NCBI GenBank assembly: GCA_963709285.1
Contig: CAVPVR010000010.1
Coordinates: forward strand, 451,570-515,569
DNA from: an uncultured delta proteobacterium
GTDB taxonomy: Bacteria; Desulfobacterota; Desulfobaccia; Desulfobaccales; 0-14-0-80-60-11
Length of the DNA: 64,000 nt
Reading direction: 5' to 3'
Of this stretch, positions 38,082 to 57,470 are shown in pieces. Both the position numbers and the translations under genes were made by a program. The notes under the pieces are model-generated. The model ran no database searches. It was not told the origin of the DNA and saw only the letters and a program-made list of their open reading frames with translations. Position 1 is the first letter of the stretch; every line of letters starts with the position of its first letter.

Positions 38082-38130
38082 CCCTTAGGATTACCCTCAA
38101 TGGGGAAAAATTTTACCAAGGGTCGGCGAC

Positions 38131-38952
38131 TTATTTGTGACCCCAGATCACCGTATTCCACGCCAAATAAGGAAACAAGGGCAGGCTTAAGAGAACTTTA
38201 TCAAGTCGGAGGAGAGGTTTGAACCACCAGCCGATTTTCTCGGAATCTTCTTTGAAAATCTTTTTCCAATACCGGTCGGCACTCGGATGAACCCGATCAA
38301 TGAAAAAATACTTACAGAACAAAAGTAGACTTGTGAGCCAAAATTCGCGGTGATAAACCTCAGAGAAAATCTTTTGGAACGTTTTTAGGTCCGAAAATCG
38401 AAGGGGGTGCTCGTCCTCTGTGCGCACTTTAGTGGCCAAGCACCTATATACCTTTATGGCCGGGTTGTAATCCAGGGGATCATAAAAAAAGAAACGCCCC
38501 CCGGGGACAAGGGCTTGGTGGATGGCTTGTAGAAATGCCTCGATATCCCCCAGGTGATGGAGGATGTTGGCACCATAAACTATGTCAAACCGATTTTTGC
38601 CGTAGTCAAAGCGGTCAGTCTGCCCTAGCAGGGTGTCAATGTCCACTTTGTGTTCCCTCGCCAAAGCCACACAACGTTCCAGCATAAGCGGGGACAGGTC
38701 ATTGGCCGTGACCTGGGCACCCTTCAGGGCGAAATATACCGAGGCCTCCCCTAACCCCGCTCCCACATCCAGAATCCTGAGGTCTCGCACATCCCCCATC
38801 AGGGAAAGGATGAATCGGTTCTCCTGGGCCGTAAGGTGTTCAAAAGTTTCGTAAACCTTGATTTCGGCCAGAGGCGTTTCCGCAGCCCAGGTGTCGTGAA
38901 AATCCCTCTCCCGTTCGCTACGGCTCCTGTTCAGGCCCATTATGTTCTCCAT
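38131..38952 (-). CDS. Class I SAM-dependent methyltransferase
   Basis: ILDVGAGLGEASVYFALKGAQVTANDLS (motif I plus the acidic loop). An internal ATG is chosen as the start; the ORF-track start is 38994. Confidence 0.8.
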   Translation of the reverse strand: MENIMGLNRSRSERERDFHDTWAAETPLAEIKVYETFEHLTAQENRFILSLMGDVRDLRILDVGAGLGEASVYFALKGAQVTANDLSPLMLERCVALAREHKVDIDTLLGQTDRFDYGKNRFDIVYGANILHHLGDIEAFLQAIHQALVPGGRFFFYDPLDYNPAIKVYRCLATKVRTEDEHPLRFSDLKTFQKIFSEVYHREFWLTSLLLFCKYFFIDRVHPSADRYWKKIFKEDSEKIGWWFKPLLRLDKVLLSLPLFPYLAWNTVIWGHK

Positions 38953-39913
38953 TAATACCACCCCCCCCTCTCCCGCAATACTCTCGTACAACAAAGATGG
39001 GCCTTCTTTTCACCTCGGTATAAATTCGTCCGGTATACTCCCCCAGGATCCCCAGCATGAGTAGAGTGAAGGTCCCGAAAAGGATAATGGCCAGAATCAA
39101 GGAAGACCATCCGGGCACCATGGCCACGCTAAAAAAAACATACAAAATGAAATTGTAAACCAAATAGAGGAGAAAAGGGATCATCAGGACCAAAGCAATC
39201 ATGTAGGCGGCCCTGAGGGGCATGAAGGAAAGGGAGATGATACCGTCCATGGCCAAGCGGACCATCTTCACCAGGGGATACTTGGTGGTGCCAGCCTGGC
39301 GGGGGGCCCGGTCGTACTCCACCATTCCCCTTTGGAAACCCAGCCACCCCACCAGTCCCCTGATATACCGGTGAGTTTCAGTGAATCGTTTAAAGGTTTC
39401 CACTGCCACTCTATCCATCAGGCGGAAGTCGCCGGAGCCTTCAGGAGCATCGGTTTCCGACAATTTGGACACCAGCCTGTAATAAACTTTGGCTGTCCAA
39501 AGCTTGAACTTGGTTTCTCCCGTCCGTTTTCGCCTCACTGCCAGAACTACTTGATTCCCCTTTTCCCACTCACTAACTAAGTCTGGTATGACTTCAGGTG
39601 GGTCTTGCAGATCAGAATCAATGGACACCAGGGCATCACCTGGTGCCAGCTCATAGCCACAAGATAGGGCGGCCTGATGACCAAAATTTCGAGACAAGCG
39701 TATACCACAAAATCGCCCGTCTTTCTCGCTGATGTCCTGTATCAATTTCCAGGAGTTGTCTCTGCTGCCGTCATCTATGAACATCACCCTAACATCATAT
39801 CGATCTTCTAATGTTTGCAATACTCCGCTCATTCTTTCAAAGAAAAGTGGTAATACCATTTCCTCATTGTAGACAGGTACAATCATCGTGACTAATTTTT
39901 TCTTATGCAGCAT
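38918..39913 (-). CDS. GT2 polyprenyl-phosphate glycosyltransferase (ArnC/GtrB/DPM1-like) with two C-terminal TM helices
   Basis: IVPVYNEE, FIDDGSRD, SIDSDLQDPP and C-terminal hydrophobic helices. Confidence 0.9.
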   Translation of the reverse strand: MLHKKKLVTMIVPVYNEEMVLPLFFERMSGVLQTLEDRYDVRVMFIDDGSRDNSWKLIQDISEKDGRFCGIRLSRNFGHQAALSCGYELAPGDALVSIDSDLQDPPEVIPDLVSEWEKGNQVVLAVRRKRTGETKFKLWTAKVYYRLVSKLSETDAPEGSGDFRLMDRVAVETFKRFTETHRYIRGLVGWLGFQRGMVEYDRAPRQAGTTKYPLVKMVRLAMDGIISLSFMPLRAAYMIALVLMIPFLLYLVYNFILYVFFSVAMVPGWSSLILAIILFGTFTLLMLGILGEYTGRIYTEVKRRPIFVVREYCGRGGGGINGEHNGPEQEP

Positions 39914-40096
39914 TCTTACACCTTTTATTTATCAATACGTATTTTTACTCTTTATAATTCGATTCAGATAAATAAAGGTTAAATAAAATTAAATGTCAAT
40001 TTCTTTGTGATGCAGTATAAACAGGAATGTTGACCAGTCCGCAGTTGACACTGTTGGATTGATTCCACCACTAAAGTCATACAGGATGGAATCTCA

Positions 40097-41098
40097 TCAA
40101 GTCCGCAGCCGGCGCTGGGCCGGGATTTTCTCGAGTAAGCGGAAAGGAGTGCGCACGGCTTCAATGGTCTCCCCAACCTGCTGAATATTGGCCTCGCGGA
40201 CGGGGCCCAACCAGCCCTCAGCTCGGGAGAGGGACACCACCCGGTGGGGGTCGATACCCATAATCCGGGCACAGGTGGCATCCACCGCCGGCAGGTTGCG
40301 GCCCATAACCAGCACTCCGGCGTACTTCGGGTCCCCCATAATGGGCCCGTCTCCTTCCATCCCCACGATCCCGTCCACAATGGCGAAATGCGGCCGTACC
40401 GTAGCAGTAATGTCAATGATGCACTCGTTAATGCCGGCCCAATGGAGGTAGTTTTTAGGCCAGCCGTAAAAGCTCCCGGGCATCAGGCCGAACAGGTTCT
40501 TCATAGACAAAGTGACCCCGGCCCAATGGTGCGTCTTGAGTTTGGCCATGGAAACGATAAAGTCAAATTCCTTGAGGCACACCGGCAAGGTCAGCGACTT
40601 CAGGCGTGAGTAACCCCCAGCGTTGGGTACGGTGTAACCACTCTCGCGATTGAGGTCTATGAAGGGAATGCCGTCCTCCCAGAGAACCTCTCCCAGCTTA
40701 GACTCATCCAGGACCCGCAAGGTGTCGGTGATGTGTCCGGGCCCTTCTGCCACCACCACCCGGGCCGCCCCCAGGGACAGGAAGGCCTCCACCGCCCCCC
40801 GCACCACTAGGGGGTGGGTGTTGATGTGCACCATCCCTGGGCTTGTTTCCACCAAGTTAGGTTTGAGGAGCACCCTTTTGCCTCGGATATCTGCCTCGGA
40901 AACTCCCAATTCCTGCAAACCGGTCCTGACCGCCTTCTTTATATCCACCTGGTAGTTGGGGACCTTCCCGATGAAAGTCTTCTCATCCCAGGTCCGAATT
41001 TTAGCTTCTTTCCAGAGGAAATAGCCGGCCGTCCCCACCACCAGGCCGCCGGCGCATATAGTCAGGAATTCTCTACGGGTAACGCCCATGTTTACCAA
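40097..41098 (-). CDS. DUF362 domain protein with a Tat-type signal
   Basis: The N-terminus TRREFLTICAGGLVVG has a twin-Arg. LLKPNLV, KLKTHHWAGVTLSMKNLFG and DGIVGMEGDGP are DUF362 hallmarks. Confidence 0.8.
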   Translation of the reverse strand: MVNMGVTRREFLTICAGGLVVGTAGYFLWKEAKIRTWDEKTFIGKVPNYQVDIKKAVRTGLQELGVSEADIRGKRVLLKPNLVETSPGMVHINTHPLVVRGAVEAFLSLGAARVVVAEGPGHITDTLRVLDESKLGEVLWEDGIPFIDLNRESGYTVPNAGGYSRLKSLTLPVCLKEFDFIVSMAKLKTHHWAGVTLSMKNLFGLMPGSFYGWPKNYLHWAGINECIIDITATVRPHFAIVDGIVGMEGDGPIMGDPKYAGVLVMGRNLPAVDATCARIMGIDPHRVVSLSRAEGWLGPVREANIQQVGETIEAVRTPFRLLEKIPAQRRLRT

Positions 41099-41129
41099 TT
41101 CCCCGGTGCTCTTGGCGGTCTTACCTGAT

Positions 41130-42011
41130 TTAGGTTTGACAAATGCTCACCAATCCACCGGTAGCCCTGGAGGCTATCAGGAGCAAAGCCAGGGAGGAGG
41201 TGTCGTAACTGCCGACTCTCTTCTGGCGGGCTAAACAGGCTTCGATCCAAGCGTCGGCTGAAGTTGGTTGCGCGCCCCAGGCACTCAGGCCCAAAAGGGC
41301 CCACCCCAGGGACCAGGGGGTTTTGAGACTGGTAGCGCTGTTCTCCAGGTAAGCAATGCTTTCCTGAACCCCAGCCCGGGTAACTTTGTGACTCAGAGCA
41401 TTGAGCACCATGCCGGTGCTTTCCGGCATGGGGTGCAGAACCTCTCCAAACACGGCGGTGTTGCCATAGTTCCACCCGCCACCGGGAATTTGCCGATCCA
41501 TGAGCATGAGCTGGGCTTCCGCCAAACGCGGATGGTCCCCATATCCCGCCACCTGTAGGGCCATTATGGCCATGGCAGTGGGCTCTGCCCAGGAGTGGGT
41601 GTCAGACCGCCAGGACCAACCCTTGATACTTGGGTCATTGCTCACTGCATCATCTGCCTTTTTTTTCCAGTGTAAACCTGAGGTGGCCAGAAGAAAGGCG
41701 GCCGCCCTATCTTGGACGGCCTTGTGCGCAGAGGATCCCTGCCAGGCCAGGACGGCCAGTGAAGTGGGCCAATAAGACTCTGGATGATCAGGGGAGATGC
41801 TCACCCGGCCATCACCAAGCTGCTCAGCGGCCAGGCGCTGACGTGCCGCTTCTATAAGTTCCGGCCCAGCACCCAGGGCAGAGAAAGCAATAACAGCCCA
41901 GGCGGTCGAGTCAGTCCGGAAGTCTCCTCCCTGCTGGATGGCAAAGCCTCCGCCAGAAAGGGCTCGATCCTGCACCTGCTCGATTGCCTTAAATATGTGT
42001 GGCCTAAGCAT
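41130..42011 (-). CDS. Prenyltransferase/squalene-oxidase repeat (alpha-alpha toroid) protein
   Basis: 293 aa with repeated GGF/GGW...W motifs (SGGGFAIQQGG, IPGGGWNYG) typical of terpenoid-cyclase/prenyltransferase repeats. Confidence 0.65.
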   Translation of the reverse strand: MLRPHIFKAIEQVQDRALSGGGFAIQQGGDFRTDSTAWAVIAFSALGAGPELIEAARQRLAAEQLGDGRVSISPDHPESYWPTSLAVLAWQGSSAHKAVQDRAAAFLLATSGLHWKKKADDAVSNDPSIKGWSWRSDTHSWAEPTAMAIMALQVAGYGDHPRLAEAQLMLMDRQIPGGGWNYGNTAVFGEVLHPMPESTGMVLNALSHKVTRAGVQESIAYLENSATSLKTPWSLGWALLGLSAWGAQPTSADAWIEACLARQKRVGSYDTSSLALLLIASRATGGLVSICQT

Positions 42012-42736
42012 GTTCCCCCACCCCCCAATACATCATCTTTTGGGGAAGCAGGGCCTCCCCCCTGATGGAGAAACCGTTTTAGGATATCCAGAATTTCAGA
42101 ATTTTACCCTACCTTAATACGACTTGTGGAAAAAGGCAATTTGCCCTGAAATAAAAATGAGTTTTTCTCTTGAGCAATGTTCGCTGCAAGAAGTGGGGAA
42201 ACCAAGACCCTTAGCCCATATAAAAGTCAGACAAGGACCTGGGGCTCGGAGGTTGGGCAAAAGGAACTTTCAGGAGTAAGACCGCTGTTCATCGGCCAGA
42301 TTTTAGTGGGGACGGGTGTGGAGATTGGCAACAGCACTGATCTATACGTACACCGCGTACACAAAAGCCCGCACGTCCAGTAAATTCGCCGGTTGATAGC
42401 TCGCCCCCGGGAGTGACGGAGGCCTGGAGCAAAACAACCAAAATCTGAGACCAAGATCCCGACCAAGTCCGAAATCCAAGGTCTGATCTTATTGGTACCC
42501 AAGAAAATTATTCTCCGACAGGGAATTCTCTTTTTTATCAATAGATAAAATAGCTGAATTCCTTATTTTACACCGCTAAAAGCGCTTAAAATCTCACTTT
42601 TGACGTTGGTCTGGACCTTGCAAAATGAACCTCATAGCTTTGCCATATCATGAACTTTCTCGAGAGTTGCCGGGTCTAAGACACTCCCGGAGAATTATTG
42701 CAAGCCTCAGTTGTAAGGGAGAAAAGGGCAAGCGAC

Positions 42737-44248
42737 ATGAGCGAGAAAAAATCTGGAAAATACCTGCATTCACCTGACTCAGGAAAGCAGGGAGAATCCA
42801 ATAAGATAAACGACTTATCCGAAGACCTGGAATATCAGGGCAGCTTGGTGGCGTCGGCCATCCGCTGTCGAAGTTTGGGTTGGCGTCTAGCTGCCGTGGA
42901 CGCTCGGGAACTGGTCGACCTGGAGGTGAATTTCGCAGAACCCGTGGAACTCTGGTTGCGGCAATGCAGCTTGGCAGGACCGCTTCTGGGTCGGGTGAAT
43001 CTGGGGGTGCACACCGGGTCAGCTTCCCAGCTAATGGTTCTGGAGGTGGGGACCAGCGAGGGGGAATCTGCTCTGGACCACTGCGGCAGCTGGCGCTCGT
43101 CTTGCCGAGCCCGGGTGAACGGGCGGGAACAACATTATTTCACCCTTCCCTCTGGGGATGAACCACCTCCCACAAGGTTTTTGATGACCGCCCAAGTAAT
43201 GGTGTATGGTGAGGAGGGACTGGCTCCCCTGCCTCCTTCGGTGGACGTCAAGATTCAGGAATCCTGGCGCTGGTCGAGCCCCCCCTGGGAATACCCGCCA
43301 CCGGAACCGTCTCCATCCCTGTGGGCTTTCCTCAAACAGCATCTGTCCTCGGCCCCGAGGCCAGAAACGGAACCGGAGATGCCTTCCTGGGATGAGGTAT
43401 ACCGCCGCATCACTCCCCATGAACAGCTGCTGAAGGCCTTGCTGGCCCCTTTCGGCACTCTCAAGGAACACTACCAGGACCTCCTAAAAACGGCCCTGGA
43501 AGCAGGTTTTCAGGACCGAGGCTTTCTCTTGGGACTCCTCTGGCATGCCCCGCAGGGGGACGTTTCAACAAATCCTGAGCGTGGCGCCCAACTCAAGCGT
43601 ATGGTAGAAGAGGCCAAGCTTGGCTTTTCCCGTGACGCTAAATCCCTCACCTCACAGGGCCCAGGGAAGAAAAAACCAGAAGAGAGCGTCCTGGTAAGCC
43701 GCTCCCGCTTTGAGGGAATCCTCGGCGACCTGAGAATGCTCATGCAAAAGGCGGCGGAGCTGGAGGCCGTAATGCTGGACTGGGGAAAAACCTTGACCGC
43801 TGGCCAAACCACGGCGTCACTTGGTGCTGAGGGTCCCTTTCAGGGTTTTCGGGGTCATTCTTCAGTCCCCCAGGACGATTATAAGCCAGATGAGGAGCTC
43901 CGCATGGCCGTAGATGAAAAACTGATCCAGGGAGGCCAAGCTTCAAATCCTTCCAGCAACCCTCACTACCATGAGGATGACCGCAGTAGTTGCCGCTTCC
44001 ACTATAGCGAACTGCACCAGAAGGACCCGTCGGTAAATCCCCCGGATGCAGTTGAGGCAATGCTAAGCGCTTGTCTGCAAAAGAACTCCGACCTGGCCGG
44101 CGATCCTTTTAAGCTCCAGATGGTGGAATATTGTTTCAAAAATTACGTGAACATCGATCCTGAGCTGTCAGATCTTAGCCTTCAGGAAAGATTGGAACGG
44201 GCCAGCCAGATGGCCAGGGAATTTCTGGGAAGACGGGGACAAGCATAA
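42737..44248 (+). CDS. Uncharacterised protein with a degenerate primase-polymerase (Prim-Pol)-like N-terminal domain, paralog 1
   Basis: RSLGWRLAAV...NLGVHTGSASQLMVLEVG...GREQHYFTLP...VMVYGEEGLAPLPPS...WRW follows the Prim-Pol pattern (GW.V.P / NIGI.TG..SGL.VLDVD / GG.H.YF / D.RG.GGY.V.PPS...Y.W), but the D.D is replaced by E.G. It is paralogous to 45781..47307. The ATG at 42737 has a better RBS than the ORF-track start at 42698. Confidence 0.6.
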   Translation: MSEKKSGKYLHSPDSGKQGESNKINDLSEDLEYQGSLVASAIRCRSLGWRLAAVDARELVDLEVNFAEPVELWLRQCSLAGPLLGRVNLGVHTGSASQLMVLEVGTSEGESALDHCGSWRSSCRARVNGREQHYFTLPSGDEPPPTRFLMTAQVMVYGEEGLAPLPPSVDVKIQESWRWSSPPWEYPPPEPSPSLWAFLKQHLSSAPRPETEPEMPSWDEVYRRITPHEQLLKALLAPFGTLKEHYQDLLKTALEAGFQDRGFLLGLLWHAPQGDVSTNPERGAQLKRMVEEAKLGFSRDAKSLTSQGPGKKKPEESVLVSRSRFEGILGDLRMLMQKAAELEAVMLDWGKTLTAGQTTASLGAEGPFQGFRGHSSVPQDDYKPDEELRMAVDEKLIQGGQASNPSSNPHYHEDDRSSCRFHYSELHQKDPSVNPPDAVEAMLSACLQKNSDLAGDPFKLQMVEYCFKNYVNIDPELSDLSLQERLERASQMAREFLGRRGQA

Positions 44249-44501
44249 GCAGAAGAATTTACGACAAATGATTGCTAAAAATAAAAAAACATGTGCTGCT
44301 GCGGCTTATAAAAACATTATTCTTGTTTATTAAAAATATATAAATATTTCTTGAAATTTAAGGTTACAGCAAATTTAGCTCGTTTCTCAAAAACAAAAAC
44401 CCCCAGCTTTCTTGCCAGAATTCTTCTTACCCGCAACTTCATTGCTGAAGTTGCGCAATTCTTTCAGAAATTGGGCCCGTTCCTGGGCCAGGATGATTCC
44501 T

Positions 44502-45461
44502 TTAATAAGCGGGAACCGGTTTCAATTGGGGAGTGACGGCACTGGTCAACCGGGAGGAAAACAAAAAGGCCCGGGCCATCTGTTTCAGAGCCGATCCGGC
44601 CTGGCTCTGCTTTTTGTAAAGAGCCTGGGGGGACATCTGATTGATGGCAATTTCCACGGCCGGGTCAAAGGGCAGGTGCCCCAGCATCTGAGGTTCCACG
44701 CTTAAGAAGTCTGCACAGACAGACTTGATGATCTGGACCGATCTCAGATCCTGGTCGCTCTTCACCATATTTACCACCAGGTACATTTGGAACTCATTTA
44801 AAACCCTGGTGAGCCGTGCCAAGCGCTCTGCTCCCGTAGATGCGAAGTGGGTGATAAGATCCTGAATGGACTGGATGTTGCCGCCGCCTTCTTTACTTCC
44901 CATCTGGTAAATGAGAGTTGTCGTTTCCACATCTCCCGCGAATTCCCGGGAAAGCTTCCGGAACAAGGCGCTCTTAATGAAGCCATAGACATTCTGCAGG
45001 GAGGTGACCTGACCAGTGAGCACGGCGATCTTCCCGGGAGAATGATTAAATAAGTCCAGGGTGTTGAAAGAGGTGCCGGCCCCCAGGTCCAGGAGGACGA
45101 AATCGGCCTCCAACTCTTCGATTTGCTTTACTAACCGGAGCTTTTGGGAATAGGTGGGGTTGGCCGAGCCCAGGATGTCATCCGCCCCGGATATAAGACT
45201 GATGTTCTCAATTTGGGTGGGGATTATCGTATCTTCAAGACGCGACACCCGGCGCAGGAGGAAATCCTCCAAGGTGATTTCCGGATAGCGCAATCCGAGG
45301 AGTGTATGGAGATTGGCGCCTCCCAGGTCGCCGTCCATGAGGATGACTTTTTTCCCCAATTCGGCCAGACAGACACCCAGGCCCAGGGTCACAACGCTTT
45401 TGCCGACTCCACCTTTGCCACCACCAACACTCCAAAGCTTAACTTTTGATTGGTCAAGCAT
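44502..45461 (-). CDS. MinD/ParA/FlhG-family P-loop ATPase
   Basis: Deviant Walker A GGGKGGVGKS, MDGDLGGAN and LLDLGAG (Walker B-like). Confidence 0.85.
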   Translation of the reverse strand: MLDQSKVKLWSVGGGKGGVGKSVVTLGLGVCLAELGKKVILMDGDLGGANLHTLLGLRYPEITLEDFLLRRVSRLEDTIIPTQIENISLISGADDILGSANPTYSQKLRLVKQIEELEADFVLLDLGAGTSFNTLDLFNHSPGKIAVLTGQVTSLQNVYGFIKSALFRKLSREFAGDVETTTLIYQMGSKEGGGNIQSIQDLITHFASTGAERLARLTRVLNEFQMYLVVNMVKSDQDLRSVQIIKSVCADFLSVEPQMLGHLPFDPAVEIAINQMSPQALYKKQSQAGSALKQMARAFLFSSRLTSAVTPQLKPVPAY

Positions 45462-45500
45462 AGATCCTCCCCCAATCTCTCAGATAGGTTGGCTGTTTAA

Positions 45501-45791
45501 TTATCTTTCTGAACGTAGTTCTAGGTATTTCTTCAACGCCAGAATGCCGGCCCCGATGACCACCAAGATGGCCCCGATGCGGGCTTGTAAAATCCCAGAG
45601 CCTAAGATTTGAAAGACGGCACCGGTGATAAACAGCCCCACTCCCAAGAGGTTCCATCCCTTGACATACTCAGAAGCACCATCCTCCTTCTGGGCTTTGT
45701 CCCACCGGTCCCACAGATTCTTGACATCCTTAGGTTGAGATTTCCCAGCCGTGTCGTTCTCCAGTTGGGTGATTGTCTCTTTAGGCTCCAT
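45501..45791 (-). CDS. Small two-TM membrane protein
   Basis: 96 aa, hydrophilic N-terminus and two hydrophobic helices. It overlaps the upstream gene by 11 nt. Confidence 0.5.
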   Translation of the reverse strand: MEPKETITQLENDTAGKSQPKDVKNLWDRWDKAQKEDGASEYVKGWNLLGVGLFITGAVFQILGSGILQARIGAILVVIGAGILALKKYLELRSER

Positions 45792-47307
45792 GTGCCATGT
45801 TCCTCCTCTTCATCTTCATCTCTGGAACTTTCGGGCCCTCCTTCGGGAACACCTGGGTCAAAAATTCACGGGCCATTTTTCCAGCCATTTCCAGCTTGTC
45901 TCCCAACGGCAGGCTGTTGAGCTCCGGGTTGAGGTCAATATAGTTCCGTAGACAAAACTGCAACATTTGTACCGACTCAGGGTCAGCAGCCAGATCAGCA
46001 TTGCTTTTGAGGAATTCCTGCACCACAGTCTTAAGACTCGACAAAGGCTGGGGTCGGTGGTCGGGAGGCGGGGCCCCCACCGGGGCATCAAAGGGGAATC
46101 CCCTGGGCCCTAACCCCGGTGACTGGAGTATTGCCGCTGACCCCGCTGGCGGGGCCGGCTGCCTCTCTTGGGAGCGCTGTTCCCATTCCGCCAAGCGCCG
46201 CTGCAGGTCCTCGGCCTTGGCGGTAAGTTCCGCCAGTTCATAGATCATGCTTTCATAGCGGCTGCGGTCCAGCACAACCCGGTTTTCCATGAACTCCACC
46301 AGGTCATTTGCCGGAGGCTGGGATTCCTCAGGCGAGTCAGGCTTTCCTGATGTCGTTTTCTGGGGTGTGGTAACCGCTGAAGAAACTCGTTCTGGAATTC
46401 CTTGGGTCTCTCCCTCCCCGTGGTGTGCCGCAGCAGTTAGCTCCCGGATGTAGGCCAGCCTTTCCGGGGAGGTGTGGGCGTCCCCCTGGGGGGCATGCCA
46501 CAAGAGGGCAAAGAGCACCGCCGGGTCTGTGACCCCCGCCTGCTGGGCCTGGTTCGCCAAGTCCCGGTAATAGGCCGCCACCGAAACCACTGGTGTCAGG
46601 AGGGTCCGCAGGAGCCCCTCGTGGGGGGCAATAAGGGTATAGACCTGGTCCCAGGGCAGTACTCCCGCTGCGGGGTCACTTTCTTCTACTTCCTGGAGCA
46701 GCCCGTATTCTTCCAGAAACTCCCATACCGGCGCTCCGGGCGTATCAGGAGGAAGTTCCCAGGGGGGGGCCACCCAGGTCCAGATGAGGCCATCGTTATT
46801 AAACCTGGAGGGAGGAGCCAAAACCAAACCCCCCTGGCCGTAAATCCGAACCTGAAAATTTTCCACCTCCCCGGACACCGGCACCCGGGAAGCAGGCGGC
46901 AGAATAAAAAAGTGTTGTTCCCAGTCTTCTCCGGCCTGGGCCCGGCAGGCAGAACGCCACTCTCCGAAGGTGTCCAAAAGTGTCTCACCCCGGGGGGTCT
47001 CCAGCACCAGAAGCCTTGAAGCCAGGCCGGTCCTGATCCCCAGACCCACCTCCACTCCCGCCAGGGCCAGGGTCATGAGACGCTCCCCCCATACTTCCGA
47101 GGACTGGCTGAAGTCCAGGGTCATTGCTCCTTCTCCCCGGGCTTCCAGGACCCAACCCAGTTCCCGGTAGCGGTCGGCGTGCTGGATGAGCACTTCGCTC
47201 TGCTCGAGGCTGTCCCGCAAGTGAAAGATGCGCCCCAGCTCTTCCTGGCCGATGCGAACCTGGAAGTCTTTGGGGGCTTCTTTGCCGTTGTCGGGGAAGG
47301 CGCTCAT
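45781..47307 (-). CDS. Uncharacterised protein with a degenerate Prim-Pol-like N-terminal domain, paralog 2 (inside the tad operon)
   Basis: RELGWVLEAR...GLGIRTGLASRLLVLETP...WEQHFFILP...VRIYGQGGLVLAPPS...WTW. The middle (LLWHAPQGD) and C-terminal (MAREFL) blocks are shared with paralog 1. Good RBS (AAAGGAGAGG). Confidence 0.6.
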   Translation of the reverse strand: MSAFPDNGKEAPKDFQVRIGQEELGRIFHLRDSLEQSEVLIQHADRYRELGWVLEARGEGAMTLDFSQSSEVWGERLMTLALAGVEVGLGIRTGLASRLLVLETPRGETLLDTFGEWRSACRAQAGEDWEQHFFILPPASRVPVSGEVENFQVRIYGQGGLVLAPPSRFNNDGLIWTWVAPPWELPPDTPGAPVWEFLEEYGLLQEVEESDPAAGVLPWDQVYTLIAPHEGLLRTLLTPVVSVAAYYRDLANQAQQAGVTDPAVLFALLWHAPQGDAHTSPERLAYIRELTAAAHHGEGETQGIPERVSSAVTTPQKTTSGKPDSPEESQPPANDLVEFMENRVVLDRSRYESMIYELAELTAKAEDLQRRLAEWEQRSQERQPAPPAGSAAILQSPGLGPRGFPFDAPVGAPPPDHRPQPLSSLKTVVQEFLKSNADLAADPESVQMLQFCLRNYIDLNPELNSLPLGDKLEMAGKMAREFLTQVFPKEGPKVPEMKMKRRNMAHGA

Positions 47308-47350
47308 GAGCCTCTCCTTTGGTTATGCCTTACTGCACCAGGTTTATGCC

Positions 47351-48424
47351 TTACTGCACCAGTTTGGGAAGGCTGGCCCGCAGGGCCACGCTGGAGCCGC
47401 CGCTGGGGGTCCCCGTTTCGCCGTTGGGACAAATGTAGCCGCCCCTGATCCAGCCAGCAACGGTTTTTTCCTTCTTATCCACCTCTACAATTTCGAAGGC
47501 CACAAAACCCTGCACCTCCCGCGACTGGTTATAGGTCGTCGACCCGGGCACCACCGGCAGAACGACTGTCCAATCGCCGTTGTGCACATTGTAGAACTCG
47601 TTTTGCATATGTTTCAGCACGGAATCGGCCACCCCGTTTTGCATCTCGATGTATTCGCCGCACCTAATGGACAGATCGTCGGGATTGATATCCCCTCTGT
47701 CCTTCCAGGTGCCGTCGATGAGGTCCTCGAGGAGGTTAGCACTGCAATTATTGAGTTTAAAGGCGTGCCAGCCGCCGGTGTCCGAGGTGTCGGGGTTGAA
47801 GGTCACCCACATTTTTTGACCCACCGGCGGCACATAGGTGTCGCCCACGGCAATGGGGAACCCCCCGCCCGGTCGCAGGTTCCGTACCCAGCCCAACAAG
47901 GCGGTGGCCTGGCCGGTGAGCTCCACGCTGTCGAGGCCCAAGAAACTGGCGAACCACAGGTTAACGGGGCCGTTCCAGTCATTGCTGCGGCGGGTGGTCA
48001 CCCGGACGGCATTGAGGGTGTAGGAGTTGGCGGCGTCGCAGGGCAGTGACTGAAATTCCCAGGCGTTACTGGCGGCGCTGTATTGCCAGACCCCCACCTC
48101 GACATCCGCAGTGGAGATCAACAGTGGTTGGCCGTCAGACCTGTTTTGCTGGACGACCTCCATCGCCTTGAGATGGGCGTAAGCGCAGTTCAGCAGGTCT
48201 TTGGCATCTTGGGGTTGGGCGCCGTTGCCCAGCCAGTACAGGGACATGGCGCCGGCGTCGGCCCCGGCGTCCGCGGCGTTCTGGAGTTCCTGCCTCACCA
48301 CGTAGAGGTGGCCCAGGTCGATCACCAGCCCGGTCATGGCGAGGAGCATGAATATGGAAACCGCCACAAAAACCGCGGTGGCCCCACGGGTGTCCCGGCG
48401 GAAGTTCGAAAGCCACGTTTTCAT
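47351..48424 (-). CDS. TadG-like (TadE/G N-terminal domain) pilus-associated protein, operon copy
   Basis: 357 aa with the same leader-like N-terminus as 23935..25053. Confidence 0.75.
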   Translation of the reverse strand: MKTWLSNFRRDTRGATAVFVAVSIFMLLAMTGLVIDLGHLYVVRQELQNAADAGADAGAMSLYWLGNGAQPQDAKDLLNCAYAHLKAMEVVQQNRSDGQPLLISTADVEVGVWQYSAASNAWEFQSLPCDAANSYTLNAVRVTTRRSNDWNGPVNLWFASFLGLDSVELTGQATALLGWVRNLRPGGGFPIAVGDTYVPPVGQKMWVTFNPDTSDTGGWHAFKLNNCSANLLEDLIDGTWKDRGDINPDDLSIRCGEYIEMQNGVADSVLKHMQNEFYNVHNGDWTVVLPVVPGSTTYNQSREVQGFVAFEIVEVDKKEKTVAGWIRGGYICPNGETGTPSGGSSVALRASLPKLVQ

Positions 48425-48514
48425 TCCTCTACCTCCATGAGTCCCGGCAGGGTTATTTCAGGCTTTGCAGCCGCCGCCCAGCCTTTTTCCCAAACTGCCG
48501 GGGTCCCAGGGAGG

Positions 48515-49480
48515 CTAGATGGCGTCTTTTTTGGTTTCCTGCAGTTTTTCCAGGGCCTTTTGCAGGTTAACCTTGGCCTCATGGTAGAAGGTGGGCCTCA
48601 GGTCCAGGGCCTTCTGGAAACACTTGGCTGCGTCCTCGTAACGTCCCTCTAGATAATAGTGAACGCCGATGTTGTTATATGCCTGGGCCTCGTCACCCCC
48701 TTTGCGAAAGGCGTCGAAGGCCTCGTTGTACCGTTTGAGCCCGGCCAGGGCCATCCCCATCTGCAGGTTGACCTTCTTGCCCTTGGGATCTAGACTCTGG
48801 CCCTGTTTCAAATAAAGGAGCGCCCGGTTGTAATCCTTGAGCTTCAGGTGCGCCTCACCCAGGCTAACCAGGAGAGCCACGTTTTTCCGGTTCAGGGACG
48901 CTGCTTTTTCCATGACCCGGATGGCCTCCCTGGGTTTGTCGTCTGCCAAGTAGGCGATCCCCAGGAGATGGCGCGTCTTGACTCTGCTCCTATCCTGGCT
49001 CATCACCTCCCGGAAGATGCTGATTGCCTGGGGATACTGCTTCTCCTCGAAGTATGTCAAACCCAAGGCTTCTTTGGCCTCCAGCATGTCCGGTTGGGCA
49101 GCCAGCACTGTTTTCAGTTCCTGGCGGGCGCCCTGCAACTGACCATTGAGCAGCAGGATTACCCCCACCTTGTACCTGATGTCATGACGCTCAGGATTTT
49201 CCTTAAGCAACTGCAAATAATGCACCAAAGAGCCATCAAATTGCCGTCTTTCTAACAGCAAATCTCCTAATGCTTCCCGGCGCTCCGGGGTCAACTCTTC
49301 CTTGGCCCCAGGGTAGGGCTTGGTTGACACCGGATCGTAGGCCTCTTGCAGTTTGGCGACATCTTTCGGCTTCAGGGGCTTGACTTGCAAGTTCCCCTTT
49401 GTGCGCGAACAATGGCTCCCCAACACCACCAAGGCCGCCAATAACAGTAGGCTTACCCCGACACGACCGACTGACTGCAT
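48515..49480 (-). CDS. tadD: TPR-repeat protein, TadD-like
   Basis: 321 aa, a signal peptide and multiple TPR units. Its position downstream of tadC is as in tad loci. Confidence 0.7.
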   Translation of the reverse strand: MQSVGRVGVSLLLLAALVVLGSHCSRTKGNLQVKPLKPKDVAKLQEAYDPVSTKPYPGAKEELTPERREALGDLLLERRQFDGSLVHYLQLLKENPERHDIRYKVGVILLLNGQLQGARQELKTVLAAQPDMLEAKEALGLTYFEEKQYPQAISIFREVMSQDRSRVKTRHLLGIAYLADDKPREAIRVMEKAASLNRKNVALLVSLGEAHLKLKDYNRALLYLKQGQSLDPKGKKVNLQMGMALAGLKRYNEAFDAFRKGGDEAQAYNNIGVHYYLEGRYEDAAKCFQKALDLRPTFYHEAKVNLQKALEKLQETKKDAI

Positions 49481-49494
49481 GGCAAAGTCCCTCC

Positions 49495-50246
49495 TCAGTC
49501 AGCCAGTTTAGCGAAGGCCTCCTCTCTTTGCAACAAGTCTTGTCCCAGGGTAACCCGAACGGCCACTTTGGTGGGCAGAGACGACCATCTTCTTGGATTT
49601 TCGTGCTCGGGGAATAATCCCGGGCCCGCACTTGGACCGCCCGGTCTGCACCGGGCCGGTGAAAAATAACCGTTTGTTCCATCCATTGCCGTTTTTCACT
49701 TCCATCCCCGTGAAGAAAACCTCTATAATGTTCAACCAGGTTTTTTTCCCCAGGGGCGCAAGCTCCCCCCCTCTTACAACCAGAATCAGCCACCGGCAGC
49801 GAGGAGGGAACGGCCACAGGCGATGGTGCCGCCCTTACCGAAGTTGCCTCGTCAACCGGCTTCTGCTTAGGTGGCACGGTTTCCGGCGCCGGCATCCTGG
49901 GGGAGGTTTCGGTACCCGGCGTCGTATCGGCCGATGGGTGGGGAGCCCATCGGGCCAGATGTACTGAAGCGGCCTCGGTTACGGCCGGGGCCGCCGGTGG
50001 CTGCCATTTTTCTACAGGCGGTGTTTTTAGGTTCGGCTTCGAGAGCGACTGTCTTGCTATACTGACCTCGGGTTGTTCAGAGGTTGGACCTGTATAAGTT
50101 TTGGCCACTACTGCCGCGTTGGCCGGACTGGGCGGAACATTCTTTTCAAGAGCGGCCATGATCCGGGAAAGCCACCCTCGTCTCCGCACCACAATTCTTT
50201 TTGAGAAATAAACATAAGTCCGTAACTTTTTTACCCGGTCAGCCAT
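49495..50246 (-). CDS. Pro/Ala-rich hypothetical protein; 3' end requires a frame change
   Basis: The ATG at 50246 lies 21 nt after the tadC stop. The long ORF-track frame (49236..50345) would run 245 nt into tadD. A different frame ends ...VAVRVTLGQDLLQREEAFAKLAD* at 49495, immediately before the tadD GGAGGG RBS. Confidence 0.4.
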
Positions 50247-50266
50247 GGGTTTCGCGGGTAAGCCTC

Positions 50267-51205
50267 TCATTTGGCTATCAGGCTGCGGTAAATTTGAATG
50301 GCTGCGGGTCCCAGGATGACAACGAAAATGGCGGGAAAAATGCAAAAGAGGGTGGGAAAAATGATTTTAATGGGCATCTTAGCCGCCAACTCTTCCGCTC
50401 TCTGGCCCCGCTGTACCCTTACAAAATCTGCGTGCGTACGCAACGATTGGGCGATAGAAGCCCCCATTTTCTCAGACTGGATCATTAAGGCTATTAATGA
50501 TTTGATGCTTTGCACGCCAGTGCGTTCCCCCAGGTTTTTCAAGGCCGCATCTCGGGGAATGCCAGTTCTCAGCTCTGCATTGGTGATCCGAAATTCCTGC
50601 TGCAAATCTTTGGAAATGCGGCGCATTTCTTCGGCCACATGGTTTAAACTCGACTGCAATGACAGCCCCGCCTCCATGGAGACGATCATCAGATCGAGGA
50701 CATCCGGCAGGGCCTTGTCGATGCGGTCCTGCCGCCGTTTTAACGATCGTCTCAAGATGTAGTTGGGGAGGTAATATCCCAGGGCTGCCACCGCCAAAGC
50801 AATTCCCAGGTTCATTGTGGTAACCTTACTCGTCCACATCATATAGATCAGGTAGCAGAGGGGGAACAACATGGTGCTGAGTGCTTTGATGCCATAAAAC
50901 ACCGCCACCGAGTTAGTGTATCGGAAACCGGCCTGGATAAGAGTAAGACGCAGGTCCGAGGTTTCTTTTTTCTCCTTTTCCTTTCCCAGGGCCATATTCC
51001 CGAAAGAACTGATTGCTCCCAGAGCCCATTCTCTCAGGGTCGAGTTTTTCGAATCCCGGCGGACTAAGGGAGCTATCCCTGTTGTTGATTTGGCGAAACG
51101 CTCCTGCATCTCCCGGCGGGTCCCGAGGTATACGCACAGGCCATAGGTCAAAAACCCTATGGCGCCAAAAGCAACTATCAAGATAATAAGGATTATCCGG
51201 TCCAT
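50267..51205 (-). CDS. tadC: Type II secretion F-family inner-membrane platform protein TadC
   Basis: 312 aa with T2SSF domain topology, paired with tadB. Confidence 0.85.
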   Translation of the reverse strand: MDRIILIILIVAFGAIGFLTYGLCVYLGTRREMQERFAKSTTGIAPLVRRDSKNSTLREWALGAISSFGNMALGKEKEKKETSDLRLTLIQAGFRYTNSVAVFYGIKALSTMLFPLCYLIYMMWTSKVTTMNLGIALAVAALGYYLPNYILRRSLKRRQDRIDKALPDVLDLMIVSMEAGLSLQSSLNHVAEEMRRISKDLQQEFRITNAELRTGIPRDAALKNLGERTGVQSIKSLIALMIQSEKMGASIAQSLRTHADFVRVQRGQRAEELAAKMPIKIIFPTLFCIFPAIFVVILGPAAIQIYRSLIAK

Positions 51206-51217
51206 CCCTTGCTCCTT

Positions 51218-52210
51218 TTACACATTGATCCTAATGATCTTCCGCATCCAGAGGACACCCAGGAGAATATTAAGGAGCGCAATCCCAATAAAATAGGTCC
51301 CCATTGGTTCCTTGAACAGAGTGTCAATGTATTTTCGGTTCAGAATAGTGAGGGCGGTAAATACGACAAAAGGCAGAAGAGCCAGGATAAGAGCAGAAAA
51401 CCGACCCTCTGCGGTGAGGGCCTGAATCTTGCCTTTCAGCTTCAAGCGCTCTCGGATGAGATGGCCGATGTTTTCCATGACTTCAGCAAGATTCCCTCCG
51501 GTTTCACTCTGGAGCATAACCGCAGTAACAAAATACTGGAGATCCTGGCTGGCCACACGTTCTCCCATCCGCTTGAGCGCCGCGTTCATTCCCAATCCCA
51601 GACGCTGCTCATCGTAAACGATTTTCATTTCGCCACCCAATGGATTGGGGGTCTCTTTGCTCGCTAGATCAATGGAGGAAGGCAGGGCATGGCCGGCCCG
51701 CAAGGAGCGGGCCAGAAGTTCCATAGCCTCCGGCATCTGCCTTTCGATGACCTTGGTTTTGCGAGACTTTTTCATGCGCACAAACACAAAAGGTGCGTAC
51801 CCAAAAATAACCGCTGCTCCAAGGGCGGGAAAAAGTCCCATTTTGAAGAAAACTGCCCAGAATGCCAGTGCTGCCAGCAAGCCTGCCAGACTTAAAAAGT
51901 TTCCGGGACGCCAGTAGATATCGGCCTGCAGAAGACTGCGTTGCAGGTTTTCAATTTTTCCCAAAGCCCCCACACTCTTGGCAATGGCCTGGAATGCGCT
52001 TCCCTCTATCTCCTGGACGTTTTTCAGAATCTGGATCTGGGCCAGGCGATGTTTCCTGCCTTTTGTCATCCGCTGGTGCAAATGCCGGCGCTGAAGCACA
52101 GGTTTGATAATCAGGTGGTAGACTCCCGTAAACAGGAGGGCCACCCCCAAAAAAACCGCTACCAAACCCAGGGTATAATAAGGACTGGCTTTCATGTTCA
52201 AGAAATTCAT
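51218..52210 (-). CDS. tadB: Type II secretion F-family inner-membrane platform protein TadB
   Basis: 330 aa with a T2SSF domain. Confidence 0.85.
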   Translation of the reverse strand: MNFLNMKASPYYTLGLVAVFLGVALLFTGVYHLIIKPVLQRRHLHQRMTKGRKHRLAQIQILKNVQEIEGSAFQAIAKSVGALGKIENLQRSLLQADIYWRPGNFLSLAGLLAALAFWAVFFKMGLFPALGAAVIFGYAPFVFVRMKKSRKTKVIERQMPEAMELLARSLRAGHALPSSIDLASKETPNPLGGEMKIVYDEQRLGLGMNAALKRMGERVASQDLQYFVTAVMLQSETGGNLAEVMENIGHLIRERLKLKGKIQALTAEGRFSALILALLPFVVFTALTILNRKYIDTLFKEPMGTYFIGIALLNILLGVLWMRKIIRINV

Positions 52211-52248
52211 AAGCCCACTCCGTAATTGACCGCCCGCCTTTTCCTTCG

Positions 52249-53646
52249 CTAATAGCGTTTGAAGCGAAGATCGCTAGCATCCGGCAGACTGAACAGATTG
52301 TCATCCAGGGGCACCCCAAAAATCTTGCAGCGGTCTGCAAACCGGGGCCGCACCCCAGTGGAGGTGAAGCGACCCACCACTCGCTGTTGATCATCCATGG
52401 AGTGCCGCTCATAAAGAAAGATGTCCTGCATGCTGATAACGCCACTCTCCATCCCGGTTATTTCCGACAACGAGATCATGCGGCGCACCCCGTCGCTATG
52501 TCGGGCCAGCTGCATGATAACGTCCAAAGACGAGCTGATCATCTGCCGCATGGCCTTTTCCGTGATCTTGAAGCCGGAAAGCTGCATCATGGTTTCCAGG
52601 CGCATCAGGGCGTCCCGGGCGGTGTTGGCGTGGATGGTAGTCATGGAGCCTTCGTGGCCGGTGTTCATGGCCTGGAACATGTCGATGACTTCAGCGCCCC
52701 GCACCTCACCCACAACGATGCGGTCCGGGCGCATACGGAGACTGTTGCGCACCAAATCCCGCTGGGTAATTTCACCTTTCCCTTCTACGTTAGGGGGCCG
52801 GGTCTCCAGGCGGGCGACGTGCTCCTGCTGAAGCTGTAGTTCCGCCGAGTCCTCGATCGTGATGATGCGCTCACGGTTCGGGATGAATCCCGAGAGGATA
52901 TTCAACAGAGTTGTCTTCCCAGCACCGGTGCCCCCGGAGATCAGGACGTTCATCTTGGCCATCACCATGGCCTTCAGTACCTCGCCGACCTCCGGAGTCA
53001 GGGAGCCTTTTTCAATAAGATCTTCAAGGGTAGGCCGCTGTACTGCAAAACGGCGAATAGACAGCATGGGCCCGTCCAGAGCCAAAGGCGGGATAATGGC
53101 ATTGACTCGGGAACCGTCCGGCAACCGGGCGTCCACCATAGGGGTGGCTTCGTCAATACGCCGGCCCACATTTGCCACAATCTTGTTAATTATCTTGAGA
53201 AGGTGGCTGTTGTCCTGGAACCTGATCTGGGTCTTTTCCAGTTTTCCCTGCCGCTCTATGTACACCTGGTCGAAGCGATTGGCCAGGATATCAGAGATGT
53301 TGGGATCTGTGAGAAGGGGTTCCAGGGGCCCCAGACCCAAGATCTCGAATTCAAGTTCTTGAACGAGGCGATTCTTCTCCTGGAGATTGATGGGCTCGGA
53401 CTCTTCCCGGAATAGTTGCTCCAAAGCCTGGCGCATTTCCCTCGCCACCACGATGTCATCCAGATTCTCCATCTGGCTCAAGTCCAGGCGCTCTAAGAGA
53501 AGGGTGTGAATCCGGCTTTTCACTTCATAGAGCTTGGCTTCCCTGTTTTCGTCTCCGCGAAAGGAAGTAAACAAAGCCACAGCCGCTCCCGGCTCCTGGT
53601 CCTTCACTTCCTGAAAAGTTCTCTTGCTGTATCGTCGAAAAGCCAT
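52249..53646 (-). CDS. cpaF: Tad pilus secretion ATPase CpaF/TadA
   Basis: 465 aa. Walker [10 protein letters not shown], Asp box, Walker [12 protein letters not shown] and His box of T2SS/T4SS E-type ATPases. Confidence 0.95.
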
Positions 53647-53661
53647 GTGGTCAAACCTCCC

Positions 53662-54849: not shown

Positions 54850-54877
54850 GGTTCGCAGGACCTCCTTGGGGCTTACC

Positions 54878-55216: not shown

Positions 55217-55337
55217 ACGCTCCCCCTTGTCACCCTCCGTGTCCTCCAACCCGGTGGCGTCCCCCTCCTCATACACGCCATCTACGCTCCCGGGCCTGAA
55301 AAGAGATAGTTTTACCTGAGACTCACCAGGCTTCCCT

Positions 55338-56147: not shown

Positions 56148-56154
56148 GGCTCAC

Positions 56155-56610: not shown

Positions 56611-56613
56611 TAC

Positions 56614-57168: not shown

Positions 57169-57212
57169 GGCCTTCCCTCCTAAAGCCCGACGGTCCTTCG
57201 GCCCTTACTTCA

Positions 57213-57317: not shown

Positions 57318-57368
57318 GGCGACCTCCTTTGCTCTTAATTTGGTGATGGCACCCCGGTTGCAAAGTGC

Positions 57369-57406: not shown

Positions 57407-57470
57407 TTGACGGACATGATTAAGAGTTTACGAGCATTACCAGAGCCTGTTCGTTCCTCTGGATGTGAGA

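Follow-up and report, generated by a model that had tools for sequence, protein, structure and literature searches.

Many bacterial machines are organized by MinD/ParA-type ATPases, each of which needs a specific partner, and MinD, FleN and FlhG govern the placement and number of machines in the cell envelope. To our knowledge, few families of such partners are known, and the primase-polymerase (Prim-Pol) fold has so far been tied to DNA replication and repair. The DNA studied here is a stretch of 64,000 nucleotides from an uncultured delta proteobacterium of the Desulfobaccales (contig CAVPVR010000010.1 of assembly GCA_963709285.1, positions 451,570 to 515,569; the whole stretch will be referred to as the window). 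In it, the genes for two paralogous proteins with a degenerate Prim-Pol domain, PP1 and PP2, flank the genes for a small membrane protein and a MinD-like ATPase, at the end of a tad (Flp pilus) operon. These genes had been singled out in an earlier examination of the letters of this DNA (to be referred to as the sequence-only reading). We lean, though only slightly, toward the view that they form an uncharacterized, lineage-specific MinD-partner/adaptor module that regulates Flp/Tad pili.

The closest functional analog of the module appears to be the BcsE-BcsF-BcsQ(R) system of E. coli-type cellulose secretion, the resemblance being one of logic and not of ancestry. According to one report (PMC7439463), recruitment of the MinD-like ATPase BcsQ to the inner membrane is the work of two proteins, namely BcsE, a multidomain pseudo-enzyme whose REC and GGDEF domains are degenerate, and BcsF, a small membrane protein from the same operon. 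BcsE senses cyclic di-GMP (c-di-GMP), and the envelope-spanning cellulose secretion machine is under c-di-GMP control through PilZ. The logic of the parts is the same here, with a pseudo-enzyme, a small membrane protein and a MinD-like ATPase. There is no sequence homology between the two systems, however, except for the ATPase superfamily. Its pseudo-enzyme is derived from a primase instead of a diguanylate cyclase, and its machine is the Tad pilus instead of cellulose synthase.

The PilZ-FimX-PilB system, which controls type IV pilus assembly ATPases, likewise combines a PilZ-domain protein with a degenerate-enzyme adaptor (FimX, a degenerate GGDEF-EAL protein) tied to a type IV filament. 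It has no MinD-like ATPase and its PilZ protein is soluble, whereas in relatives of the module a PilZ-like domain is fused to an anchor of two transmembrane segments (two-TM). MinD, FlhG and FleN, with their partners (MinE, FlhF and FleQ), have a deviant Walker A motif in common with the module ATPase, which likewise has its gene beside that of a dedicated partner and those of an envelope nanomachine. The partner in the module is a pseudo-primase, however, and the ATPase falls below the curated MinD cut-offs. In contrast to TadZ/CpaE, the module ATPase has no receiver-like domain, and it coexists with a canonical TadZ.

The primase-polymerases of the AEP superfamily (NrS-1, RSF1010 RepB′, and Prim-Pol/helicase fusions) have the fold of the catalytic domain and the sequence profile in common with PP. 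The motif II His, the GG(Y/L)xxxPPS strand and a helical domain after the Prim-Pol domain are also found in both. In PP, however, DxD is changed to E-x-(non-acidic), the Asp of motif III is gone and there is no helicase or zinc domain. Additions in PP are an N-terminal helix, a coiled coil and a helical domain at the C terminus. The PP genes are chromosomal and linked to MinD-like, PilZ, Flp/tad and c-di-GMP genes rather than to replication genes. The known part of the module is a MinD/ParA ATPase with a dedicated partner that is accessory to a type IV filament, and the unprecedented part is the Prim-Pol-derived partner. The sequence-only reading had not recognized the combination as a described one, and in the literature on primase-polymerases with Tad or MinD, on inactive AEP proteins with ParA or a pilus, and on Tad/Flp in Desulfobacca, we likewise found no account of the module.

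The module has the following features in the window.

42737-44248, plus strand: PP1 (paralog 1), 503 residues from the ATG
44249-44501: convergent intergenic spacer, 253 nucleotides, AT-rich, between the stop codons of PP1 and the MinD-like gene
44432-44455: terminator-like hairpin CGCAACTTCATTGCTGAAGTTGCG in this spacer, which contains further hairpins
44502-45461, minus strand: MinD/FlhG-like P-loop ATPase, 319 residues
45501-45791, minus strand: small two-TM membrane protein, 96 residues (from the translation)
45781-47307, minus strand: PP2 (paralog 2), 508 residues, first of the trio of PP, two-TM and MinD-like genes

PP2 was said to be packed directly behind the TadG-like gene of the tad operon, and this is so: the stop codon of that gene, which has TadG Pfam matches (see below), and the ATG of PP2 are 43 nucleotides apart, with a Shine-Dalgarno sequence (AAGGAGAGG). 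The ATG of the two-TM gene and the stop codon of PP2 overlap by 11 nucleotides, and 39 nucleotides including GGAGG precede the ATG of the MinD-like gene. This arrangement points to co-translation. PP2, the two-TM gene and the MinD-like gene are the last three genes of the tad operon, probably co-transcribed and translationally coupled. PP1 does converge on this set from the other strand, as had been stated, and faces the MinD-like gene over the 253-nucleotide spacer. An alternative start for PP1 is the upstream TTG at 42698, which would give a protein of 516 residues. In the region of about 700 nucleotides upstream of PP1 (42012-42736), there is no convincing open reading frame, no Rfam match and no sigma-54 site. 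Over the whole window Rfam finds one tRNA only, with no c-di-GMP or other riboswitch near the module.

PP1 and PP2 share 31% identity over their full length (BLASTP, E 1e-73), and thus are two paralogous proteins of about 500 residues, as had been claimed from their motifs, all of which are present in the translations and the alignment. The motif I region is LLVLETP in PP2 and LMVLEVG in PP1. Further motifs are EQHFF and EQHYF, and YGQGGLVLAPPS. The shared blocks include WDxVYxxIxPHE, LLWHAPQGD and, near the C terminus, NY..(L/I)(N/D)PEL...MAREFL. The source databases label the proteins of the window 'hypothetical', and some relatives are automatically annotated as 'bifunctional DNA primase/polymerase' (NCBI) or 'FlhG'.

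The N-terminal domain of PP1 and PP2 is a true homolog of Prim-Pol (PF09250). The Pfam model matches PP2 at 24.2 bits (cut-off 22.8), over residues 85-186 and profile positions 45-156 of 158, and it matches 18 of 21 family members at E ≤ 0.01 (best E 1.6e-11). A PHROG DNA polymerase/primase family also matches PP, at 4.6e-5. A search with a family profile hidden Markov model over 1.84 billion representatives gave 436 matches at E ≤ 1e-3 and 82 at E ≤ 1e-30, and the profile retrieves the intact Prim-Pol proteins P0157, P0179 and P0174 at E values from 3e-17 to 2e-13. P0157 contains PF09250 (135 bits) together with an AAA_25/DnaB-like helicase domain. Positions 82-299 of the family profile align with residues 54-277 of this protein, in which the Pfam Prim-Pol domain ends at 161 and AAA_25 begins at 296. 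As the match runs beyond the Pfam domain and into the helical middle domain (see below), two consecutive domains of an ancestral primase-polymerase have been kept in PP2.

The structural evidence comes from AlphaFold2 models of full-length PP2 (predicted local distance difference test score, pLDDT, of 72 overall and about 90 for the N-terminal domain) and of its residues 1-300 (pLDDT 82). The Prim-Pol domain has pLDDT values of 85-95. With both models, ranks 1-7 of the Foldseek search against the Protein Data Bank (PDB) are taken by six entries of the phage NrS-1 primase-polymerase (probabilities 0.98-1.00) and by RepB′ (0.54-0.63), and the next PDB match has an E value of about 0.7. For the model of residues 1-300 the probabilities are 0.98-0.99 (NrS-1) and 0.63 (RepB′). 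The Prim-Pol fold that had been proposed from motifs alone is thus recovered in profile, Pfam and Foldseek searches. A comparison of the family profile with the PDB sequences gave nothing relevant, the best matches being to low-complexity or coiled-coil segments at E > 0.2. None of PP1, PP2 and the two-TM protein has an NCBIfam model. In PADLOC, PP and the two-TM protein have no anti-phage defense match, and those of the ATPases are marginal P-loop matches.

In the AEP superfamily, the carboxylates of motifs I and III coordinate the catalytic metals. An alignment of 52 PP family members with the three intact Prim-Pol proteins shows the following residues at the catalytic positions.

Motif I, first Asp: Asp in the intact proteins; Glu in 51/52 of the PP family
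Motif I, second Asp: Asp in the intact proteins; Asn, Pro, Arg, Ala, Gly or Leu in 47/52 (other five not listed)
Motif II, His: His in the intact proteins; His in 50/52
Motif III, Asp: Asp in the intact proteins; Arg, Leu, Gln, Met, Ser or Thr in 46/52 (other six not listed)
Residue after motif III: Arg in the intact proteins; Tyr in 45/52

His132 of PP is aligned with the His residue of P0157, P0179 and P0174. Two of the three metal-binding carboxylates are lost, which makes primase or polymerase activity very unlikely, and PP1 and PP2 are predicted from the alignment to have none. The claim that the D.D metal site is replaced therefore holds for the whole family, with the correction that the first Asp has been exchanged for Glu (51/52) and is not simply lost. 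The PP genes are not decaying, because there are 47 invariant columns among sequences that are just 33-40% identical, and Glu103, His132 and Tyr156 are fixed. The conserved pattern of these three residues would fit a remodelled pocket that is still functional. Taken alone, homology to Prim-Pol and inactivation are claims that we hold with high confidence, and the label 'bifunctional DNA primase/polymerase' for PP relatives is very likely wrong as a functional statement.

PP2 can be divided into four regions after its N-terminal helix.

46708-47160, minus strand: degenerate Prim-Pol (AEP) domain, about residues 50-200 (Pfam, AlphaFold2 and Foldseek)
46414-46659, minus strand: helical middle domain, about residues 217-298 (WDxVY..PHE..LLWHAPQGD)
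46165-46308, minus strand: long single helix or coiled coil, about residues 334-381, some 48 residues (AlphaFold2 helix)
45850-46044, minus strand: C-terminal helical domain, about residues 422-486 (F/YC.(K/R)NY...NPE...KMAREFL; AlphaFold2)

The N-terminal helix (residues 21-49 of the model) is specific to the family, and Val17, Arg18, Gly20, Glu23, Arg26, Ile27 and Leu30, located at or just before its start, are near-invariant. In the Prim-Pol domain, motif I is LVLE103-T-P, motif II is His132 and motif III is V-R154-I-Y156. The helices of the middle domain cover residues 219-298 (pLDDT about 85). The coiled coil is flanked by disordered, Pro-rich linkers (residues 297-332 and 385-420, pLDDT below 50). 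The C-terminal domain consists of three helices (residues 422-486, pLDDT about 83), with Asn455, Tyr456, Pro461, Glu462, Arg480 and Phe482 near-invariant in the family. The order of the domains in PP1 is the same, with the degenerate Prim-Pol domain, the helical middle domain, the coiled coil and the C-terminal helical domain. PP2 has neither a signal peptide nor a TM segment, and it is therefore cytoplasmic. Its domain build suits a scaffold or adaptor rather than an enzyme.

The second component of the module is an ATPase of the MinD/ParA type, as the sequence-only reading had it. It matches the Pfam families ParA, CbiA and AAA_31, and has a deviant Walker A motif (KLWSVGGGKGGVGKS) with the P-loop starting at residue 11. 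This motif, KLWS(V/I)GGGKGG(V/I)GKS, is invariant across 21 MinD-like orthologs. The closest solved structures are those of archaeal MinD (1g3q, 7.6e-20), FleN (5j1j) and FlhG (4rz2), and the protein is nearer to MinD, FleN and FlhG than to plasmid ParA. It scores 62.1 bits with the minD_bact equivalog model TIGR01968 (cut-off 212.9) and 83.7 bits with the minD_arch subfamily model TIGR01969 (cut-off 201.75), and its NCBIfam matches include neither an FlhG nor a FleN model. The module and the related loci are without minC and minE genes, and there are no flhF neighbors. MinD has a membrane-targeting amphipathic helix at its C terminus; a C-terminal segment of the module ATPase has a high hydrophobic moment (0.58-0.70), although it may just be part of the globular fold. 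The TadZ protein of the operon is encoded by a separate gene (53662-54981; 439 residues, P-loop domain from residue 181). The MinD-like protein, encoded by the last gene of the operon, does not have the N-terminal receiver-like domain of TadZ.

In the third component, the 96-residue membrane protein, a D(V/I)KxLWxRWD motif on the cytoplasmic side precedes a two-TM hairpin. Homologs of this protein (cluster 2) are found in 19 loci, and most of its relatives have a PilZ-like domain as well. PilZ (PF07238) matches the long form of L014 at 23.8 bits (cut-off 22.5) and those of L017, L002 and L010 at 17.5, 14.8 and 14.3 bits, and the long form of L035 has the canonical NLSTGG motif. From these comparisons the PilZ-like domain is either ancestral or optional in the small membrane protein.

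A one-genome-per-species scan for the module gave 30 loci, all of them in metagenome-assembled genomes of the Desulfobaccales/Desulfobaccia, and more loci were added through protein look-ups. The window proteins were mapped to these loci by tblastn and clustering of open reading frames, and a neighbor-joining tree of PP was calculated. The PP family is confined to this one, poorly cultivated bacterial order. There are 27 distinct Desulfobaccales loci with a long PP, comprising the 26 loci of clades A and B together with L028, which has no membrane-protein gene. A MinD-like gene is located within about 1 kb downstream of PP in 27/27 of them, and a homolog of the small membrane protein is detectable between the two genes in 19/27. 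In 15/27, the locus either closes a tad operon at its 3′ end or is immediately followed by an Flp pilin gene.

In clade A (10 distinct loci, including the window), PP, the small membrane protein and the MinD-like ATPase are always encoded last in the tad operon. In clade B (16 loci), PP is followed by a PilZ-like/two-TM protein of about 200 residues and then by the MinD-like gene; an Flp pilin gene comes directly after the latter in five loci, and a conserved P-loop ATPase of 488-496 residues (referred to as c4) also follows in at least 12. Clade C contains the proteins of the PP1 type, whose genes converge on the clade A module in the window, L003 and L006 (and, as broken copies, in L007 and L001) and are solitary in L023 and L026. 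The distribution is thus not random with respect to tad loci. The linkage to both tad and MinD, which the sequence-only reading had proposed to check, is complete for the MinD-like gene, whereas embedding in the tad operon is confined to one clade. The constant partner of PP is the MinD-like ATPase with the small membrane protein rather than the tad operon.

There are also links of the family to PilZ, HD-GYP and GGDEF proteins, and these go beyond what had been considered before. A subfamily of short PP proteins (about 330-363 residues) has the Prim-Pol-like and middle domains only. In L025, L032, L038 and L039 the gene for a short PP is followed by a PAS-HD-GYP gene and then by that for an Ada-type zinc-binding membrane protein, and in L027 the PAS-HD-GYP homolog after the short PP is cut by the end of the contig. 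PP is fused to PAS-HD-GYP in P0073 and P0108, with the HHExxxGxGYP motif intact. P0109 is a PP-PAS-GGDEF fusion with an intact GGEEF motif, and an Flp pilin gene follows it.

Some further observations were made in these loci. The c4 ATPase (cluster 4) has a GPSGNGKT motif and weak AAA_16 and RNA_helicase matches, belongs to no recognized family and is not encoded in the window. Examples, located after the MinD-like or Flp gene of the stand-alone modules, are as follows.

L002, 13629-15098: c4 ATPase
L009, 5425-6897: c4 ATPase
L035, 7444-8910: c4 ATPase

A 489-residue downstream gene product in L002 was considered as a third PP paralog and rejected, being a P-loop ATPase with 19% identity. A (K/Q)MAR(E/A)FL string common to the PP C termini and the MinD-like protein of the window was rejected as a docking motif; it is taken to be a coincidence, because the MinD-like orthologs of clade B do not conserve it. 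The Ada-type zinc-binding domain of the membrane protein mentioned above is at its C terminus, and the protein is found repeatedly after PP and PAS-HD-GYP genes, at the following positions.

L033, 2998-4017: Ada-type zinc-binding membrane protein
L037, 4702-5409: Ada-type zinc-binding membrane protein
L038, 9221-10378: Ada-type zinc-binding membrane protein
L039, 9252-10313: Ada-type zinc-binding membrane protein
L032, 10506-11789: Ada-type zinc-binding membrane protein

In L037 this protein, and not PP, precedes a PilZ-like fragment, a MinD-like gene (product 57% identical to that of the window) and an Flp gene. Possibly it acts as an alternative partner within this network.

The function of the module can be pictured as follows. 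PP1 and PP2 are pseudo-enzymes descended from a bifunctional primase-polymerase of the mobile-element type; they have kept the Prim-Pol domain and the helical domain after it, have lost the metal-binding carboxylates and have gained the N-terminal helix, the coiled coil and the C-terminal helical domain. The ATP-bound dimer of the MinD-like protein would be held at the inner membrane by the two-TM protein. The pseudo-primase, dimerized through its coiled coil, would be the dedicated partner or adaptor of this ATPase, and the former active-site pocket (Glu103, His132 and Tyr156) or other surfaces of the protein would bind a ligand or a component of the Tad machine. The trio would govern the site, the timing or the number of the Flp pili that the cell assembles, probably with c-di-GMP as an input. 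PP1 would be an additional adaptor isoform for this ATPase, one that is more easily dispensed with. An effect on pili, like physical interaction, membrane tethering and ligand binding, is inferred in this scheme from gene linkage and by analogy with other MinD/ParA systems. Its specific steps (tethering, stimulation of the ATPase, ligand binding) are doubtful individually. That the Prim-Pol fold has been reused as a non-catalytic adaptor coupling c-di-GMP signaling and a MinD-type ATPase to Tad/Flp pili, with the remodelled Glu/His/Tyr pocket presumably binding a nucleotide-like ligand or a protein partner, is a tentative proposal to which we give somewhat less than even chances.

If true, this would be the first Prim-Pol-derived pseudo-enzyme in a signaling or cell-surface-appendage pathway, outside of nucleic-acid metabolism, and PP would represent a new class of partner proteins for MinD/ParA ATPases. 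A replication enzyme, probably from a mobile element, would have been turned into a regulatory scaffold. Tad pilus systems would have an extra accessory layer on top of TadZ, and there would be a handle on the control of surface attachment in the anaerobic, sulfate-reducing Desulfobaccales.

Several observations weigh against this picture. The Pfam score of PP1 with PF09250 is 18.9 bits (E 0.0023), under the cut-off. The Foldseek TM-scores are 0.26-0.33, low even with the domain-only model, and the structural support therefore lies in rank, probability and specificity and not in a tight superposition. The 96-residue protein of the window has no PilZ match, being a short form of the PilZ-like/two-TM protein of about 200 residues, and most of the long forms have no RxxxR motif and an imperfect D/NxSxxG motif. 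As the domain is missing in the window and the ligand motifs are degenerate in most long forms, c-di-GMP binding is no more than a possibility. A canonical TadZ is already encoded in the same operon, which leaves a second MinD-like ATPase unaccounted for. It is gene order that connects PP with the MinD-like ATPase, and the loci are not phylogenetically independent, with about three types of arrangement in one bacterial order. The PP1 orthologs are frameshifted in L007 and truncated in L001. Finally, the link to the pilus is not universal, since there is no tad or Flp gene within 10 kb in 12/27 of the PP/MinD-like loci.

These 12 loci are also what speaks for a general polarity/c-di-GMP signaling hub, in which PP, the PilZ-like/two-TM protein and the MinD-like ATPase would be a stand-alone membrane switch with an output other than the Tad pilus. 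The switch would position other cargo or act through the c4 ATPase, and its placement in the tad operon would be one of several recruitments. The retention of the three genes followed by c4 in at least 12 loci is consistent with such a hub, as are the association of the short PP proteins with PAS-HD-GYP and a LuxR-type two-component system, not pili, and the large excess of MinD-like relatives (4526 matches at E ≤ 1e-30) over PP proteins. On the other hand, the whole of clade A is embedded in tad operons with overlapping or closely spaced genes. The Flp pilin gene recurs after the clade B MinD-like gene, after the PP-PAS-GGDEF fusion and in L037, and in a genome of 3-4 Mb a locus of about 10 kb would be met as a neighbor by chance with a probability of well under 1%. 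We consider a hub of this kind unlikely.

The conserved fold, motif II His and single acidic residue, together with the retained helical domain after the Prim-Pol domain, could instead reflect nucleic-acid handling at the base of the pilus. The pseudo-primase would bind DNA, either because the nucleoid is the matrix of a ParA/MinD-like system or because single-stranded DNA comes in, if this Tad system takes up DNA. Tad pilus-mediated twitching is described as essential for DNA uptake in Liberibacter crescens in one report (PMC8513845), which would be a precedent for the latter. However, neither the module nor the loci of its relatives showed any competence genes (comEC, dprA), the fusion or adjacency to PAS-HD-GYP and PAS-GGDEF and the pairing with PilZ point to signaling, and the ATPase is of the membrane-binding MinD/FlhG type and not of the chromosome-binding ParA type. 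DNA binding is accordingly improbable as the function of PP.

Slightly more improbable still is that the genes are a decaying or domesticated remnant of a replication-partition cassette (Prim-Pol and ParA) of a mobile element, with no role in the pilus. The reading frames have stayed full-length across the order (33-70% identity), 47 columns are invariant and the catalytic site shows the same substitutions throughout. The genes have a fixed chromosomal synteny, with neither an integrase nor a helicase nor repeats in the vicinity, and they are translationally packed inside the tad operon. Such an origin would nevertheless agree with the closest intact relatives, which are Prim-Pol/helicase proteins of the mobile-element type, with the match of the ATPase to the PHROG ParA-like partition family (5.8e-19), with the DDE transposase at 34747-35361 and with the broken PP1 orthologs of two genomes. 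That PP is a still-active primase/polymerase with a non-canonical catalytic set (Glu103 and other residues) is scarcely credible, since the strictly kept Glu (51/52) and motif II His (50/52) and the NCBI label of some members are set against non-acidic residues at the second motif I and the motif III position in at least 46/52, a Tyr in place of the Arg beside motif III and the lack of a helicase or zinc-binding partner domain.

A single tad operon, with its genes tightly packed, occupies the minus strand from 57884 to 44502. The Tad/Flp (type IVc) pilin, peptidase, TadE/G, CpaB, TadZ, CpaF, TadB and TadC genes are all located within 47351-57884, and their order matches that in L001 (precomputed Pfam). 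The genes upstream of PP2 are as follows.

57471-57884, minus strand: two Flp pilin genes
56614-57168, minus strand: CpaA-like prepilin peptidase
56155-56610, minus strand: TadE
55338-56147, minus strand: CpaB/RcpC
54878-55276, minus strand: 132-residue open reading frame with the PF13629 pilus formation protein N-terminal region, between CpaB and TadZ
53662-54981, minus strand: TadZ
52249-53646, minus strand: CpaF
51218-52210, minus strand: TadB
50267-51205, minus strand: TadC
48515-49480, minus strand: TPR protein, TadD-like
47351-48424, minus strand: TadG-like pseudopilin/assembly protein (Pfam Tad 41.1, Tad_C 37.8 and TadE 26.1 bits)

The operon has no full-length CpaC/RcpA secretin, the 132-residue PF13629 reading frame resembling the N terminus of a pilus secretin but containing no secretin domain, and the secretin may be encoded elsewhere in the genome. 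L001 has a 77-residue gene product at the position of this reading frame. A gap of about 785 nucleotides separates TadC from the TPR gene (49481-50266, minus strand), and a similar gap is present in L001. It is covered only by a reading frame of 369 residues starting with TTG (49236-50345), which overlaps both neighbors and is unmatched in Pfam. The gap may contain a small gene that has escaped annotation.

A second TadG-like gene is located at 23935-25053 (minus strand), and its protein is 87.6% identical to the TadG of the operon. In the closest relatives (L001, L003, L004, L006 and L007), PP2 directly follows the TPR gene, with no TadG. The absence in these relatives and the second copy in the window suggest that the TadG gene of the operon may be a recent duplication or insertion. 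Two copies of a tandem direct repeat, GGTGCAGTAAGGCATAA(A)CC, span the TadG stop codon at 47320-47360, just upstream of the ribosome-binding site of PP2, and may be the junction scar of this insertion.

Upstream of the flp genes there is a sigma-54-type promoter-like site, TGGCACATTTCTTGGA (58070-58085, minus strand), with one mismatch. The total number of matches in the sigma-54 promoter search is at chance level, and only this site looks meaningful. Two genes beyond it are likely regulators of the tad operon.

58463-59974, minus strand: NtrC-type sigma-54 activator
59983-63690, minus strand: multi-PAS hybrid histidine kinase, 1235 residues

On the other side of the module, a glycosylation-type cluster (36465-42011, minus strand) is located on the strand opposite to PP1. 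It encodes a protein with a weak PMT_2-like match, a methyltransferase, a GT2 glycosyltransferase, a DUF362 protein and a prenyltransferase/cyclase-like repeat protein. The transposase gene at 34747-35361 is of the DDE_3 type and on the minus strand, and the GC content falls to 0.48-0.52 over 34-40 kb.

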